Made by a program: the position numbers and the translations under genes | Shown: piece by piece, positions 1-24,796 of the stretch | Numbering within the stretch: position 1 is the first letter of the stretch | Layout of the letters: every line of letters starts with the position of its first letter | Virus record (IMG/VR): IMGVR_UViG_3300033402_000340 | Direction: 5' to 3' (one strand) | DNA length: 34,903 nt | From: a virus | Notes under the pieces: model-generated | Databases searched by the model: none | What the model was told of the DNA's origin: nothing | The model's input: the letters and a program-made list of their open reading frames with translations, nothing else

Positions 1-333
1 AGGGGGCATCAACTGGATATTTCCATCCATTACAATCAAGAGACCGTAGAGTGGGATGGATGTGAACCACTGGGAGAAGACGATAAACTCTATGATCTAT
101 ATGTTCAGGCAAGTCTCGCTGCCGAAGAAGACTACGCGACGGCGCTTGGACGAGCATCTCTTGGGATGGTAGGCGTATCTGATGATCAAGGCGGAAAAGA
201 TTTCCTCGAGGAATGCGTACAAACTATGATCGAGTATGCCATTGATGATTTGGAAAAGAATTTCTCACCAGTTCAACATGCTTCATGGTGCGACCATCCG
301 GAATGCGTTGTAGCGGGGATCATGGCGGCATGA
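1..333 (+). CDS. hypothetical protein, 5'-truncated by the window edge; ends ...CVVAGIMAA (tail-like C-terminus)
   Basis: Frame 1 is open from nt 1 to TGA at 331-333. The downstream gene starts at the overlapping ATGA (330). Confidence 0.45.
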   Translation, partial: RGHQLDISIHYNQETVEWDGCEPLGEDDKLYDLYVQASLAAEEDYATALGRASLGMVGVSDDQGGKDFLEECVQTMIEYAIDDLEKNFSPVQHASWCDHPECVVAGIMAA

Positions 334-998
334 GAGCACAAGAAGACGGATTTCTCCAAGCCGTGACGATTCAAAATCACGATCTCAAACGAGCCAATTG
401 GGACTTTGTATACGAGACAAACTGTCCAGGGTATCCAAAAGAGGGTCTTAAAATCTATAGGTCCACGAGTGCTCGCAACGTCGCGGGCGTTCCATTTCGC
501 AAACTGGCTTCTATTGTTTGGTTCGAGCGTAAAGGGCAGACAAATTTTCTGAACTTCGCTACGACTGACGTGTCCAATTTGGAACATAATTCTCGAAATC
601 AATCGAGCCTCAAGATTCAAGAATGGGACACAAACTTGGTCATGAGCGCCATGCTGGCCGTATGGATTCCCTGGTTATGTTGCAATGCAGAACTCCATTG
701 TTGGATGGGAAAACACCTGAATCCGAAATCGTTGCAGCAACGTTCATTTCGTTGCATCAAGAATCAGTGTGCATATCTCGGAACAGATTCTTATACCGTT
801 CGAGATATGCCGGCTGCAGCAATGAACGGAGTTCTTCTTCTAGAACAGAAGTACAGGGAGTTCAACGGGATTGATATTCGAGAGTCAATGGAAAAATGCC
901 GCGAACAATTCAAATTTTTGGTAGGTCGCCATGTTTCGTTCGAAGATGTGAAGACAGCATGGGATGAAACTGTGACCGCGAGCGTATTGGAGTCCTGA
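330..998 (+). CDS. hypothetical protein; C-terminus ...TASVLES
   Basis: Long ORF. ATG 330 overlaps the upstream stop (ATGA). Family tail variant VLES-stop. Confidence 0.55.
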   Translation: MRAQEDGFLQAVTIQNHDLKRANWDFVYETNCPGYPKEGLKIYRSTSARNVAGVPFRKLASIVWFERKGQTNFLNFATTDVSNLEHNSRNQSSLKIQEWDTNLVMSAMLAVWIPWLCCNAELHCWMGKHLNPKSLQQRSFRCIKNQCAYLGTDSYTVRDMPAAAMNGVLLLEQKYREFNGIDIRESMEKCREQFKFLVGRHVSFEDVKTAWDETVTASVLES

Positions 999-1664
999 AT
1001 GAGTCAGATCCTAAGGTCATCTGTGCTTGATCGAGCTCTAACTCAAGCTGTGGGTATTTACAAAAGGTCGGATATCAAGAATTGTTCGGTTGGAACGACT
1101 GATACTAGGGGGATTGACGATTTCGTCAAAGGGATGATCATGATGCAACAAATCATGGGAATCCAGAAACCCATGATTTACGGAGTTGCAAAGGCCACAG
1201 CGTTCTTCTTCAACACTTCAAATGAACAAGAAGTTCTAGATAAACTCTCTGGCTTGAGAGAGGTGAAGCGCACCCCGACACCCAACAAAGTCCTACTCAA
1301 GATGGGTTTGGCGAGGATGCATGAGGTGATGAAAGCTATTGTTGCAGTAAATCGCAGCAAACAAAATAGTAGAGATTATTTGGCGCAACAGCGTTTGGAA
1401 AAGCCTGGTGAGTTCCATCCGCAAGATCCTGTGGACTTGGAGTTTCCTGACCTTAGCAACGTTCAGAACATTCTTGCATTTCAACAGAGAATTTCCAATC
1501 CGGCTCAAAGCCGGAACGGTGATATTGCGTATTTGGTTGATTATCATTGGATCGGTAACAAGTTGGACGATCTTATTCTCTTCACGAAAAAACCGGAAGT
1601 AAATGAGATTGTAATTCAAGAGTCTTGGGACCTCTGTTCGGTTGCAGGAGTAATGGAATCTTGA
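999..1664 (+). CDS. hypothetical protein; C-terminal tail ...AGVMES
   Basis: 221-aa ORF. ATG lies directly after the upstream TGA (TGAATG). Tail VMES-stop. Confidence 0.6.
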   Translation: MSQILRSSVLDRALTQAVGIYKRSDIKNCSVGTTDTRGIDDFVKGMIMMQQIMGIQKPMIYGVAKATAFFFNTSNEQEVLDKLSGLREVKRTPTPNKVLLKMGLARMHEVMKAIVAVNRSKQNSRDYLAQQRLEKPGEFHPQDPVDLEFPDLSNVQNILAFQQRISNPAQSRNGDIAYLVDYHWIGNKLDDLILFTKKPEVNEIVIQESWDLCSVAGVMES

Positions 1665-1712
1665 GACGGCTCGCATGGTTGTAGCTCGCGCGATCCGCGA
1701 CGTACTGATCAT

Positions 1713-2159
1713 GTGATCAACCGAACTTCCTACCAGTTTAAAACGGCGATCGCAGAAAGACTAACCGTCTGGTTCGTCACACGCCCTGACATCCAAGAAT
1801 GGCTCGACGCCGAGTTGGTGAAACTCGGTACGGACTTCTTCTTCGAGTGCGACAGCATCTCGGCCTTCGGAATCGGGAAGCTCCTGACCGGGATTCGGGT
1901 CTGGGGTACTCATCAGCACATGCCGCTCGATCCGAATGCAACCTTCTTCACGAAGAGGATGCACGAGGAGATCATGCGAGAAGGGTCATTCCAGCGTTTC
2001 TGCGTGCATGAGGTAGCGGACGTCATCCCCCTCATCCAGAAGTGCCAAACCAACATCGGGAACGCAGTCCATCAAACTCAATTTTGGAAGGATAACGTGG
2101 TCAAAATCCGGCGCATTGTGGGCAACAACAAGAAGGTTCGCGAGGTCATGACTGCGTAA
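1713..2159 (+). CDS. hypothetical protein; tail ...KVREVMTA
   Basis: 148-aa ORF. Apparent GTG start sits inside the palindrome TGATCATGTGATCA. Tail of family type. Confidence 0.55.
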   Translation: MINRTSYQFKTAIAERLTVWFVTRPDIQEWLDAELVKLGTDFFFECDSISAFGIGKLLTGIRVWGTHQHMPLDPNATFFTKRMHEEIMREGSFQRFCVHEVADVIPLIQKCQTNIGNAVHQTQFWKDNVVKIRRIVGNNKKVREVMTA

Positions 2160-2171
2160 ACTCGAATAGGC

Positions 2172-2420
2172 TTGAGCGTAAGCTCTCCTATGAAGATTAA
2201 GATCCATCAGACTAGGGCCGAATGTCAAGAGGTTGATGTTGCGGAGGCATGTCGCGAACGTGCAGCTGAGCACATGCAACGCCACCTTCAGAACCCTATC
2301 CGGACCGAGCGCGGCTACGACACTTGGGATAATCCGAGCAAGCCCATCGATCTGTGGACTGCCAAACTCTTGCTCGAGATTGCGGAGCTCTTCCAGAAGA
2401 CCGAGCCGAAGCCATTTTGA
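2172..2420 (+). CDS. hypothetical small protein
   Basis: 82-aa ORF filling the gap between flanking genes. Overlaps the start of the next ORF in another frame. Confidence 0.35.
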   Translation: MSVSSPMKIKIHQTRAECQEVDVAEACRERAAEHMQRHLQNPIRTERGYDTWDNPSKPIDLWTAKLLLEIAELFQKTEPKPF

Positions 2421-23353: not shown

Positions 23354-23355
23354 TT

Positions 23356-24168
23356 ATGTGTGTTACTCTTTCTCGTGCCAGTCTCAAGAACACCATCCTG
23401 TATGCAGCTGAGGCACGAGTGAAGGATAAACTCGTCCACACGCTTGGTTATCAAAATCGAGCGCAAAATCTTACTTCTGGCCCAAATGCGATGATCCTGC
23501 CATTTCCAGCATCCGCACCCATGGGACCAGATAACGTTCTCGATACATCTTCTTGCACCCGAATTCTCAAAGACATGAGCCTTGCGATTCGCGAACCTTC
23601 ATTTGATCGAGGTATGACGAAGGGGCTTAGACTCGGATCGGCCCGCGGGACGTTGCAAGTCTTTGAAGCCGGCGCCTACACGGTCGTGCTCGCGGAAGAC
23701 GCGACCGATATTCCGAGCGCCCTCAATCAGGTGCCTGCTCACAAACGTCCGGCATTGAATTCGGAGATCTTCGACGCTTACGCGAAATGGTACCCCAATT
23801 GGTCCATCGCACTTTGTTGCTTCAGCGGGAAAGAAGGGCTCGAAGCCGAGCCCATGCTCTGGTGGTATGAGCCGAAAGATCCGCATTCTTTCTTTGCACC
23901 AGCTCTTGACGGTCATGATGGACGAGTCCCGGATCTCAAGAGCTATGTCGAAGTGGATCATACTGTCATTTTCGGATCGTGTCTCGAGCCGGTGGGCCGG
24001 GAAGTGGACTACCGAGATCGCGATATTTCCATGCGAGTGCGTCCTTTCTTGGCGTCCAAGGTCGTAGGACGAGAGATCAAGACACGTATGCCAAACGGCG
24101 ATTTCGTTATTCCGGTTTCCGAATTGAAGAAGCCGAGTTACAATCGAGCGGTTCCTCCTGGGGCGTGA
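23356..24168 (+). CDS. hypothetical protein
   Basis: 270-aa ORF. Confidence 0.6.
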   Translation: MCVTLSRASLKNTILYAAEARVKDKLVHTLGYQNRAQNLTSGPNAMILPFPASAPMGPDNVLDTSSCTRILKDMSLAIREPSFDRGMTKGLRLGSARGTLQVFEAGAYTVVLAEDATDIPSALNQVPAHKRPALNSEIFDAYAKWYPNWSIALCCFSGKEGLEAEPMLWWYEPKDPHSFFAPALDGHDGRVPDLKSYVEVDHTVIFGSCLEPVGREVDYRDRDISMRVRPFLASKVVGREIKTRMPNGDFVIPVSELKKPSYNRAVPPGA

Positions 24169-24169
24169 G

Positions 24170-24367
24170 ATGACTCCGCCGACCGCAGCGGAAGTTCTTG
24201 CGACGATGCTTACGATTTCTAACGGATATTACCCGGAGGGAGTTCACGAAGATAATCCACTCATCATCGCATTAAAGAAGCGATGCGGCTGGACTCCGGA
24301 AACCCAGCCGCTAGATCTCGAGGAAGATGTTCGTGAGCTTGCACGCCTGGAAACTCGTCGTCCCTGA
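24170..24367 (+). CDS. hypothetical small protein
   Basis: 65-aa ORF. Confidence 0.45.
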   Translation: MTPPTAAEVLATMLTISNGYYPEGVHEDNPLIIALKKRCGWTPETQPLDLEEDVRELARLETRRP

Positions 24368-24566
24368 AAACTGGGGTCAGAACGACGAAAATCACAATGC
24401 GATCTGTCCATCATGGCATTGCAAAACGTGTGGTGCCGTGGTGAAAGCCAAAGATGCCTCTATCCTTTGGGCCATGCGGAAAGGCATTCAATCGAAAGAT
24501 GGTGAAAGAGCCAATATCTTCGAGGACTGCGATGAAGAGACCGTGCGGCAGTCAATGGAATCATGA
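24327..24566 (+). CDS. zinc-ribbon protein; C-terminus ...EDCDEETVRQSMES
   Basis: Tandem paralog of 24563..24796 and related to 9641..10138. Confidence 0.55.
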   Translation: MFVSLHAWKLVVPENWGQNDENHNAICPSWHCKTCGAVVKAKDASILWAMRKGIQSKDGERANIFEDCDEETVRQSMES

Positions 24567-24796
24567 AATCGCACACTTGGTATCTCTTCGTCCCGACGAA
24601 AATTGGGGAAACTGGCAAAAATGGGCGCATAATTTGTCCTGAATGGCGTTGTAAACCTTGCGGCGCCGTAATGAGAGCCAACTATCAGCAAGTACCAGTG
24701 GCTCTAAGATGGGGAGTCCGAAAGAAAGAGATGACCAAGTTAAAGATTCTTGAAGACTGCGATGAGGAAATTGTTCGACAGTCAATTGAATCCTGA
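24563..24796 (+). CDS. zinc-ribbon protein; C-terminus ...EDCDEEIVRQSIES
   Basis: Tandem paralog. ATGA overlap. Confidence 0.55.
   Translation: MKSHTWYLFVPTKIGETGKNGRIICPEWRCKPCGAVMRANYQQVPVALRWGVRKKEMTKLKILEDCDEEIVRQSIES

Follow-up and report, generated by a model that had tools for sequence, protein, structure and literature searches.

A C-terminal peptide shared by about one hundred otherwise unrelated small proteins per genome in a group of very large uncultured phages

Terminal peptides that bring different proteins to a common place are already known, namely the capsid targeting sequence (CTS) of phage T4, the cargo peptides of encapsulins and bacterial microcompartments (BMCs), and secretion signals. 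Hundreds of unrelated, fast-evolving effectors of the Legionella Dot/Icm type IV secretion system share a C-terminal signal that is read by one machine. Encapsulin cargo-loading peptides are also C-terminal, are about 10 residues long, occur on unrelated cargo and dock inside an HK97-fold shell related to phage capsids. Prohead proteases of the T4 type are specific for phi-x-E (phi, hydrophobic residue), and the CTS contains a site of this type. In T-even phages the CTS, present on IPI, IPII, IPIII and Alt, directs diverse phage proteins to one destination (PMC3012670, PMC5694885). The virion of SPN3US, a giant phage, was found to contain 86 different proteins, which represent about 33% of all genes, and the prohead protease specificity of SPN3US and phiKZ is A-x-E and S-x-E (PMC5694885). 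In metabolosomes, a flexible linker of low conservation connects the encapsulation peptide with the functional domain (PMC4594438), and the peptides are known to self-associate and to bind the shell (PMC3299773, PMC4594438, PMC12339742). Residues 1-19 of EutC, MDQKQIEEIVRSVMASMGQ, were found experimentally to be sufficient for targeting to the Eut microcompartment (PMC3299773). This study concerns a short peptide, referred to below as the tail, at the extreme C-terminus of small proteins encoded on the viral DNA IMGVR_UViG_3300033402_000340 of IMG/VR (34,903 nucleotides; the window, meaning this whole stretch) and on the genomes of related phages.

One small clade of uncultured phages with genomes of about 400 kb keeps this tag on some 100 or more small, fast-evolving, otherwise unrelated orphan proteins per genome, which end in …V-R-x-V-M-E-S immediately before the stop codon; the canonical form is absent from recognisable enzymes. 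In the window, the last 11 codons of the open reading frames (ORFs) concerned read [D/N/E/C-anchor]-x-x-phi-[V/I]-[R/K/A..]-x-[V/I]-[M/L]-[E/D/N]-[S/A]-stop. The strict expression [VI]..[VI][ML][EDNQ][SA] has 12 matches in the 7,901 residues of non-overlapping ORFs, all 12 at the extreme C-terminus, and the degenerate DNA pattern GTNMGNNNNRTNATGGARTCNTRA was matched 4 times, compared with 0.00 expected from 100 dinucleotide shuffles. A position weight matrix was built solely from 124 tails of related contigs, so that circularity was avoided, and was applied to the six frames of the window; all bit values given for window tails are scores from this matrix. More than 12 bits were reached by 31 of 1,550 stop-adjacent 11-mers and by none of 46,017 internal ones, and at a cut-off of 8 bits the respective numbers were 35 and 2. 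This enrichment bears out the original prediction, made from the window alone, that many of its small ORFs share one C-terminus. Of the 36 ORF ends named there, 34 score above 8 bits, whereas those ending at 998 and 7508 fall below; a single tail had been overlooked (EYLCVQEVMES, 24.2 bits, on a minus-strand ORF with its stop at 34744). The ORFs also survive independent calling, as public collections call tail-bearing ORFs as genes: several metagenome assemblies contain the same phage, and the gene calls made there include small tail-bearing ORFs. Among the 33 genes listed publicly for the first 14.7 kb, we counted about 19 with a strong tail.

A logo was derived from 155 tails of the window and its relatives. 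Because of the expression with which these tails were gathered, the residue classes at -7, -4 and -3 are fixed and -2 or -1 is constrained too, so that only the split within a class is informative there: -7 is V or I, -4 is V or I, -3 is M in 97%, -2 is E in 62% and -1 is S in 85% of the tails, with the stop codon directly after. Further upstream, -5 is E in about 37% and -6 is R in about 30%, -8 is hydrophobic, -10 is E or L, and -12 is an anchor that is often C and otherwise L or W; D, N or E at -11 and the frequent S or T at -13 correspond to a helix N-cap. The conserved span amounts to 11 to 12 residues, and the peptide, which had been described as an octapeptide, is therefore real but longer, its conservation reaching -12. 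As read from the aligned sequences, the consensus is an anchor C/W/L, an N-cap D/N/S/T, E, x, phi, V, R/x, E/x, V/I, M, E, S and a free carboxyl end, as in the example SLEEAIVREVMES. Pro and Gly together account for 1.9% of the residues in tails compared with 11.5% in the bodies of the proteins, and AlphaFold (AF2) modelled the tail of a zinc-ribbon family member as a helix, with a predicted local distance difference test (pLDDT) of about 93 to 95 when a 43-sequence alignment was used and below 50 with nine sequences. The tail is thus probably an 11- to 12-residue C-terminal alpha-helix, in which the hydrophobic residues, being spaced i, i+1, i+4 and i+5, would fall on one face. A search of the tail profile against the PDB sequences gave chance-level matches only (E about 1).

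The proteins that carry the tail are highly diverse. After removal of the last 12 residues, the 155 carrier bodies formed 136 BLASTP clusters, and the 31 window carriers among them formed 31. Carriers are 60 to 365 amino acids (aa) long and include zinc ribbons, beta-rich proteins, Cys-free proteins and one membrane protein. The claim that their N-terminal parts are unrelated holds for most bodies, which have no detectable similarity, but not for about 9 of the roughly 35 window tails (about a quarter), which belong to one paralogous His/Cys3 zinc-ribbon family with an invariant H-x-W … C-x-x-C … C signature. The last Cys of this family, an invariant putative zinc ligand, stands at -12. All-against-all BLASTP of the bodies rules out that the tail tracks a single paralogous family. 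An exhaustive HMMER search of 1.84 billion representative proteins returned about 45 further small members, nearly all of which end in V-x-x-V-M plus two residues; in distant members these last two residues drift (ES to TS, KS, RT, DD or AR). Foldseek of the zinc-ribbon model against the PDB gave nothing below E = 0.4, and word-indexed homologue searches with the zinc-ribbon profile and with the ORF at 999-1664 returned the window's own proteins only.

Clear differences emerge between carriers and non-carriers in the same arrays. None of 86 tagged proteins (38 window carriers and the 48 largest from relatives) had a credible Pfam match, and 2 of the 86 had weak PHROG matches, both to families of unknown function. 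The 60 largest non-carriers of the same loci, by contrast, matched 41 Pfam families, including ligase, RuvB, ThyX, sigma-70, adenylosuccinate lyase (ADSL), AAA ATPases, metallophosphatases and a collagen-like protein. Ligase, RtcB, EF-Tu, the 5'-nucleotidase NT5C, the major-vault-protein-like protein (MVP), endonuclease VII, the HNH endonuclease, RuvB, ThyX, sigma-70 and ADSL are all without a canonical tail. Tag status is stable in evolution: reciprocal best matches between phages comprised 10 pairs with both members tagged, 34 with neither tagged and 2 discordant pairs, one of which is a mere miss of the regular expression. In tagged orthologue pairs, the bodies are 29% identical, compared with 55% over the last eight residues. 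As a separate observation, two AAA/AAA_5 ATPases of relatives have degenerate tail-like ends, perhaps by chance, namely …TVRKAMKD (L094:4661-5821) and …KVRQAFKD (L090:253-1377).

Homologous phages share the tail. Two degenerate DNA patterns of the tail were scanned over 2.9 million IMG/VR contigs, giving scattered single matches and repeated matches on four contigs of 436, 427, 393 and 193 kb, which are 65 to 78% identical to the window in conserved genes and whose tails are defined still more sharply than those of the window. The 436-kb contig, IMGVR_UViG_3300032782_000001, has at least 99 tails in the 129 kb examined, 59 of them within one 41-kb stretch, and one 11-kb stretch of the relatives contains 18 ORFs, nearly all consecutive and on one strand, that end in [VI]xx[VI]M[EDN]S. 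A set of 93 unrelated loci (702 kb) contained solely the 34 matches that had brought them in. A second lineage was found by a metagenome scan, the 58.8-kb contig Ga0315276_10000141 with 67% G+C, which has four tails in 2.6 kb (L154:5523-8149; VVRQIMKS, AVKQVMES, AILEVMES and RVRQVMET), two of which belong to proteins that lack the zinc-ribbon signature. The presence of tails in this lineage indicates that the tag is older than the clade of about 50% G+C. The consensus is identical across lineages, the window phage being the most relaxed (M 87%, S 68%).

Conservation acts on the amino acids, as had been proposed on the basis of codon use. The information in the tail-coding ends is three-periodic, with up to 1.9 bits at codon positions 1 and 2 and 0.0 to 0.37 bits at the third, and is nil downstream of the stop. 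Ser is encoded by TCA, TCG, TCC, TCT, AGC and AGT, Arg by CGN, AGA and AGG, and the Leu variants by TTG, CTG and CTT. Val(-7) uses its four codons at background frequencies, and AGC accounts for 9% of Ser(-1) codons as compared with 10% in the background. TCA is in excess at Ser(-1) because the stop overlaps the next ATG (TCATGA), as in 54 TCA-TGA junctions, and the same peptide is kept in the 67% G+C contig. By these per-position information values and codon tables, a purely nucleotide-level junction signal (a promoter or a ribosome-binding, recombination or RNA-processing site) that is incidentally translated is largely ruled out, and we regard it as exceedingly improbable. It could draw on the third position of codon -4, which is biased to C/G (ATC 76% versus 38% in the background, GTT 15% versus 30%); this bias is the sole notable departure from background codon use besides the overlap-explained TCA excess and may stem from selection for accurate decoding where the residue is constrained. 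There is also some enrichment of GAG at -2 and -5, and two facing tail-coding ends form a perfect 13-nt inverted repeat, AGAGGTCATGGAA / TTCCATGACCTCT (13841..13874), with an 8-nt loop that contains both stop codons, evidently a by-product of the facing tails. The exact tie of the amino-acid conservation to the stop codon would suit a nascent-peptide signal, in which the last 11 or so residues modulate termination, recycling or re-initiation from within the ribosomal exit tunnel, in a phage with its own EF-Tu and tRNAs and without Shine-Dalgarno sequences. The length of the tail matches the upper exit tunnel, TGA is enriched, and an ATGA overlap with the next start occurs in 46% of tails compared with 13 to 15% of other ORFs. 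The window genes that follow an intergenic spacer (starts 6834, 9387, 14088, 16352 and 22322) have A/T-rich leaders (…taatatATG, …aatcaatATG, …taaatatATG) and no upstream Shine-Dalgarno motif, and most other window genes overlap the previous stop by ATGA. However, tails are found just as well at the two convergent junctions (13856/13859 and 17301/17304) and ahead of spacers that follow a TAA stop; since even the last gene of a convergent array has one, coupling to a downstream gene does not require the tail. All three stop codons occur after tails, the enzyme genes of the same arrays do without one, and the carriers are proteins of 60 to 365 aa with conserved orthologues instead of leader peptides. 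Known termination-arrest peptides of the TnaC type are leader peptides that stall the ribosome at the stop, and their sequences differ from the tail. A ribosomal role of this kind thus appears very unlikely.

Three further explanations concern the mature protein. The tail might be the last helix of an anciently expanded zinc-ribbon family, stabilising each fold without a common partner and spread by duplication, divergence beyond recognition and 3'-end recombination. In the zinc-ribbon family it starts right after the invariant Cys and its model is a confident one, and the V..VM ends of the roughly 45 further members, with their drifting last residues, behave like a structural element. An inherited helix should diverge with the folds, however, and yet, with beta-rich, Cys-free and membrane bodies without detectable similarity among the carriers, Met(-3) is kept in 97% and Ser(-1) in 85% of tails and the stop position in all, and orthologues show twice the conservation in the tail that they show in the body; we consider this origin improbable. 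A C-terminal degron, by which one protease or unfoldase would bring about the timed collective turnover of accessory, possibly early, proteins, would account for the strict C-terminal position, as in ssrA-type tags, and for the small orphan carriers in early-looking arrays, and AAA-family ATPases lie near tail arrays in relatives. These AAA matches are weak (AAA/AAA_5) and lack a substrate-recognition or protease domain, and no protease domain was found among the proteins scanned. Moreover, ssrA-like degrons have non-polar ends (e.g. L-A-A) that are read by ClpX, ClpA or Tsp, whereas the tail has a polar, acidic E-S-COOH end, and there is no obvious reason for more than 100 proteins to share the same instability. 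We therefore judge a degron unlikely. The tail could also be a sticker in the manner of the encapsulation peptides, an amphipathic helix that packs hydrophobically, forms an E(i)-R(i+4) salt bridge and in this way joins other tails in a bundle or attaches to a shell, gathering the tagged proteins into a condensate or compartment. EutC(1-19) scores 16.4 bits with the tail matrix, above all of 200,000 random 19-mers (maximum 13.8) and above the 5th percentile of true tails (14.0), although this resemblance was noticed after the fact and should be weighed as such. The peptides of PduP, PduD and PduE align in the same register (P 0.02-0.03). In PduP the residues E7, I10, R11, I13 and L14 are critical (PMC4594438, PMC12339742); their counterparts in the tail are E(-10), V(-7), R(-6), V(-4) and M(-3). 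Encapsulation peptides form trimeric bundles that drive the condensation of any cargo (PMC12339742). On the other hand, the tail has 11 to 12 residues and not 15 to 20, is always at the exact terminus, to which encapsulation peptides are not bound, and has no linker: the 15 residues before it contain 9.2% Pro+Gly compared with 11.5% in the bodies and show no Pro/Gly/Ser enrichment, and in the zinc-ribbon family the putative zinc-ligand Cys stands immediately before the helix. The mean hydrophobic moment of the tail (0.32) is about that of random body 11-mers (0.30), whereas the EutC and PduP segments reach 0.58 to 0.59. Neither BMC-H nor BMC-P genes were found in the clade: tblastn of PduA, EutM, CcmK2 and EutN against 354 kb of clade DNA, from incomplete genomes, gave nothing better than E = 0.12, and in the IMG/VR scan shell genes were seen on one unrelated contig and on none of the clade contigs. 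A sticker of this type is thus rather unlikely.

The observations, namely that the tag exists, keeps a strict position, is selected as protein, is borne by diverse orphans, is retained in orthologues and is distributed within the clade as described, leave as candidates those functions in which the very C-terminus of the protein is read; the three roles first suggested, a targeting peptide, a degron and a docking motif, are all candidates. Selection on the amino acids, an invariant distance to the free C-terminus and unrelated, fast-diverging bodies point to a constraint that is shared and external to the folds, and the simplest such constraint would be one receptor that reads the hydrophobic helix face and the terminal M-E-S-COOH. 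We therefore favour, tentatively and at a little short of an even chance, a common sorting or docking signal with one shared receptor and one destination, for which a shell or core is the preferred candidate. The receptor, probably phage-encoded and cytoplasmic, would read the face formed by -8, -7, -4 and -3 together with the exact M-E-S-COOH end and would bring every tagged protein to the same place. As the destination we favour a protein shell or core into which the tagged proteins would be loaded together, in the first place the prohead; an arsenal of proteins would then be injected, and the tail would be a C-terminal counterpart of the T4 CTS and of the encapsulin cargo-loading peptides. 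The V/I-M-E|S of the tail would fit the phi-x-E sites of T4-type prohead proteases; cleavage there would remove just one residue. An assembly or condensate inside the cell comes second. That the phages have a sorting system of their own, in which the receptor gathers the 100 or more orphan effectors into the capsid for co-injection, into a phage-built compartment or into a condensate, is possible but on balance doubtful, and a shared docking tag is much better supported than any specific destination.

Several points weigh against the favoured sorting signal. Among the larger proteins scanned from the window and its relatives, with about 30% of the best relative covered and 25 of the 41 matched families listed, no PDZ, TPR, S41, ClpP or Lon domain was seen. 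The tagged genes stand in long co-directional arrays beside genes for nucleotide metabolism, tRNAs and ligase, which gives them an early or accessory look instead of that of late structural genes and argues against virion loading. To our knowledge, more than 100 cargo species would far exceed any capsid-targeting or encapsulin system, and the T4 CTS is N-terminal and cleaved off whereas the tail is C-terminal. The tail helix of the zinc-ribbon family, moreover, may pack on its own domain and not be free, given the confident model obtained with the 43-sequence alignment.

The MVP of the window, a full-length protein of 852 aa with Vault repeat and shoulder domains (18581-21139, minus strand), had been proposed as a possible partner of the tail. 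MVP homologues were identified in at least 155 IMG/VR stretches (loci L127-L139 and L235-L314 among them) with 40 to 68% identity over nearly the whole length, mostly on contigs of 30 to 500 kb and many on contigs of 100 to 500 kb, and MVP thus appears to be a widespread gene of large phages. Of 13 MVP loci with flanks, however, only L127, from the same clade as the window, has the tail, and vault cargo binds MVP through a dedicated domain, whereas the tail showed no similarity to any domain in the Pfam and PHROG scans of the carriers or in the PDB profile search. The proposed link is therefore not supported, MVP being widespread without tails and the shared genome being the sole connection. 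In another phage lineage (L130 and L131; IMGVR_UViG_3300033069_001798 and 3300033121_002167, positions 1-6000), some 20 small ORFs lie upstream of MVP; they are roughly 70 to 125 aa long and beta-rich with the motif GDL…, and several have similar ends (LYDGEFQKI, LYNREFKLL, LIEGEFKEL). A second type of tail beside MVP was considered for these ORFs and rejected, since they form one paralogous family and not a tag on unrelated proteins.

The tail-bearing ORFs of the window lie on the plus strand unless stated otherwise. The first, 166..333 (PECVVAGIMAA, 16.2 bits), probably starts upstream of the window, from where a public gene call enters. It is followed by 999..1664 (221 aa, DLCSVAGVMES, 23.2 bits), of which two orthologues (L005 and L018) retain the tail, 1713..2159 (NNKKVREVMTA, 19.9 bits), 2354..2791 (NQQMVREVMES, 25.3 bits; Ser AGC, stop TAA and a 40-nt spacer to the next gene), 4344..4541 (KQIVLYEVMES, 17.5 bits; a public gene call), 5121..5651 (176 aa, RLADIREIMEQ, 13.9 bits), 5648..6352 (234 aa, QEASVANVMLS, 16.0 bits) and the Cys-rich ORF 6349..6627 (DVLMIARIMNE, 9.5 bits). 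Next come 7505..7789 (EECLVGEIMGS, 22.5 bits), 7759..8010 (EEGLVFEVMNI, 12.6 bits), 9076..9345 (NSHTVQEIMNS, 19.0 bits), which has a TAA stop and no overlap with the next gene, 9641..10138 (165 aa, DEEKVRQVMES), with 28.7 bits the maximum of the window, 10283..10663 (RINIVRNIMES, 22.6 bits) and 12963..13178 (PECIVRHVMES, 27.9 bits). Two ORFs meet at a convergent junction, 13659..13859 (LLMRVAEVMEA, 17.1 bits) and, on the minus strand, 13856..14059 (ASDCVREVMES, 20.3 bits), whose orthologue at L019:7852-8055 retains the tail. The inverted repeat at this junction could have a double role as a bidirectional hairpin. Further downstream are 15778..16317 (179 aa, DLLIVEAVMSS, 18.3 bits), 17077..17304 (NLSVVKDVMET, 18.4 bits), the minus-strand ORFs 17301..17591 (NLRKIAAIMES, 17.6 bits) and 17585..17875 (DLQIVRSMMEC, 10.9 bits), 21307..21516 (PYQIVKEVMDQ, 18.7 bits), 21477..21992 (171 aa, RRKIVEKIMES, 18.4 bits), 21993..22259 (DFVEVRKIMVS, 12.7 bits), 23141..23353 (DMAIVQGIMES, 26.3 bits; Ser AGC), 29767..30078 (KLFLVYVVMCS, 13.2 bits) and the overlooked minus-strand ORF, whose 3' end occupies 34744..34903 where it leaves the window. 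The membrane protein at 22764..23141 (20.7 bits) has long hydrophobic segments and carries its tail after a basic stretch, HRRKLRNELAVREVMLS; because this stretch lies between the last hydrophobic segment and the tail, the latter probably faces the cytoplasm according to the positive-inside rule.

The zinc-ribbon family is represented, by family alignment, at 4538..4744 (DVMFCIEVMDS, 9.5 bits), 10660..10845 (NEQTIRTVLES, 13.5 bits), 13148..13447 (NYEMVRGILES, 11.6 bits), 22322..22525 (NDSIVRNVLES, 12.8 bits), 22522..22767 (EEMIIYEIMHS, 18.8 bits) and, on the minus strand within the tRNA array, 28875..29090 (EEAIVKFIMEN, 18.3 bits). Two further members lie at 24327..24566 (DEETVRQSMES, 20.5 bits), for which AF2 models were made, and 24563..24796 (DEEIVRQSIES, 12.2 bits). 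The two predicted ends that score below 8 bits are a weak, degenerate tail at 285..998 (DETVTASVLES) and a doubtful one at 6834..7508 (FIELDMNS). Faint, degenerate tail-like ends are seen at 4069-4347 (VVEDALSA), 4423-5121 (AVVHEALTS), 6624-6830 (LIYHIISS), 8349-9002 on the minus strand (IAADVITS), 10842-11693 (FFEVLTEA, the end of the nucleoside-hydrolase-like protein) and 30069-30389 (VIASLLQS). The faint tails of the window may be decaying or nascent tags.

The remaining gene content of the window is that of a very large phage. It comprises an ATP-dependent DNA ligase (2831-4072), RtcB (14088-15326), the nucleoside-hydrolase-like protein, NT5C, a DUF4326 protein and 18 tRNA genes between 25881 and 34354. 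The tRNA array is interspersed with an FGE-sulfatase-like ORF (29070-29675), an EF-Tu homologue (30609-31886), an HNH endonuclease (31940-32467), endonuclease VII (25253-25675) and three tail-bearing ORFs. The permuted 'tmRNA' that ARAGORN reported at 33123-33756 extends over several tRNA genes, probably as an artefact. The phage EF-Tu is only 50 to 60% identical to bacterial EF-Tu of GTDB representatives, and its best matches are scattered across many phyla and thus give no clue to the host. No near-identical genome was found in the GenBank phage collection INPHARED.

Searches of the literature for the motif, for C-terminal motifs of huge or jumbo phages and for phage MVP retrieved no description of the motif or of a proteome-wide C-terminal phage tag, in agreement with the initial statement that no described phage protein family with such a shared C-terminus was known. 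The novelty lies in the scale, in the strictly C-terminal form, in the limitation to orphan proteins and in the occurrence in viruses, and the chance is substantial that a new sorting system is marked by the tail. Most of what huge phages consist of is small proteins without recognisable function; here about 100 of these per genome apparently pass through the same process. If the tail is a sorting signal, much of the orphan proteome could be classed by a simple sequence rule as cargo or effectors, the receptor could be identified by one peptide pull-down and the destination by one proteomics experiment. Such a system would be a viral counterpart of the secretion-signal and effector systems and would provide a handle on a third of the 'dark matter' of the genome, and a portable tag of 7 to 11 residues that loads a capsid or compartment would be of use in engineering. 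Even if the tail proves to be a degron or a ribosomal signal, no described precedent was found for a motif on so many unrelated viral proteins.

The comparison with the known systems shows different degrees of likeness. The type IV effector signals are bacterial and form a loose compositional pattern over 20 to 35 residues, whereas the tail is a sharp, viral motif of 7 to 11 residues. Encapsulin cargo-loading peptides resemble it in being C-terminal and in occurring on unrelated proteins, but their consensus is different, being Gly/Ser-rich and extended, and there are few cargo types per shell; no encapsulin-like shell gene was seen among the proteins scanned, the phage's own capsid gene lying outside the DNA examined and no search having been aimed at encapsulins. 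The CTS is likewise a terminal peptide of about 10 residues and the sole conserved part of diverse, fast-evolving accessory and anti-defence proteins; however, it is found at the N-terminus of a handful of proteins per phage, and the tail at the predicted extreme C-terminus of about 100 or more per genome. Metabolosome encapsulation peptides are short helices, as the tail is predicted to be, and one peptide is common to different cargo proteins, but they are longer, strongly amphipathic, attached by a disordered linker, not exactly terminal and borne by enzymes of BMC loci, and Pfam scans found no enzyme domain on the tail carriers. On these features the tail falls outside the encapsulation peptides. 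EutC(1-19) nevertheless contains IEEIVRSVMAS, which scores like a true tail and shares with it the register E-x-phi-phi-R-x-phi-phi-x-S, and this resemblance, together with that of PduP, is a real lead on the mechanism of the tail.

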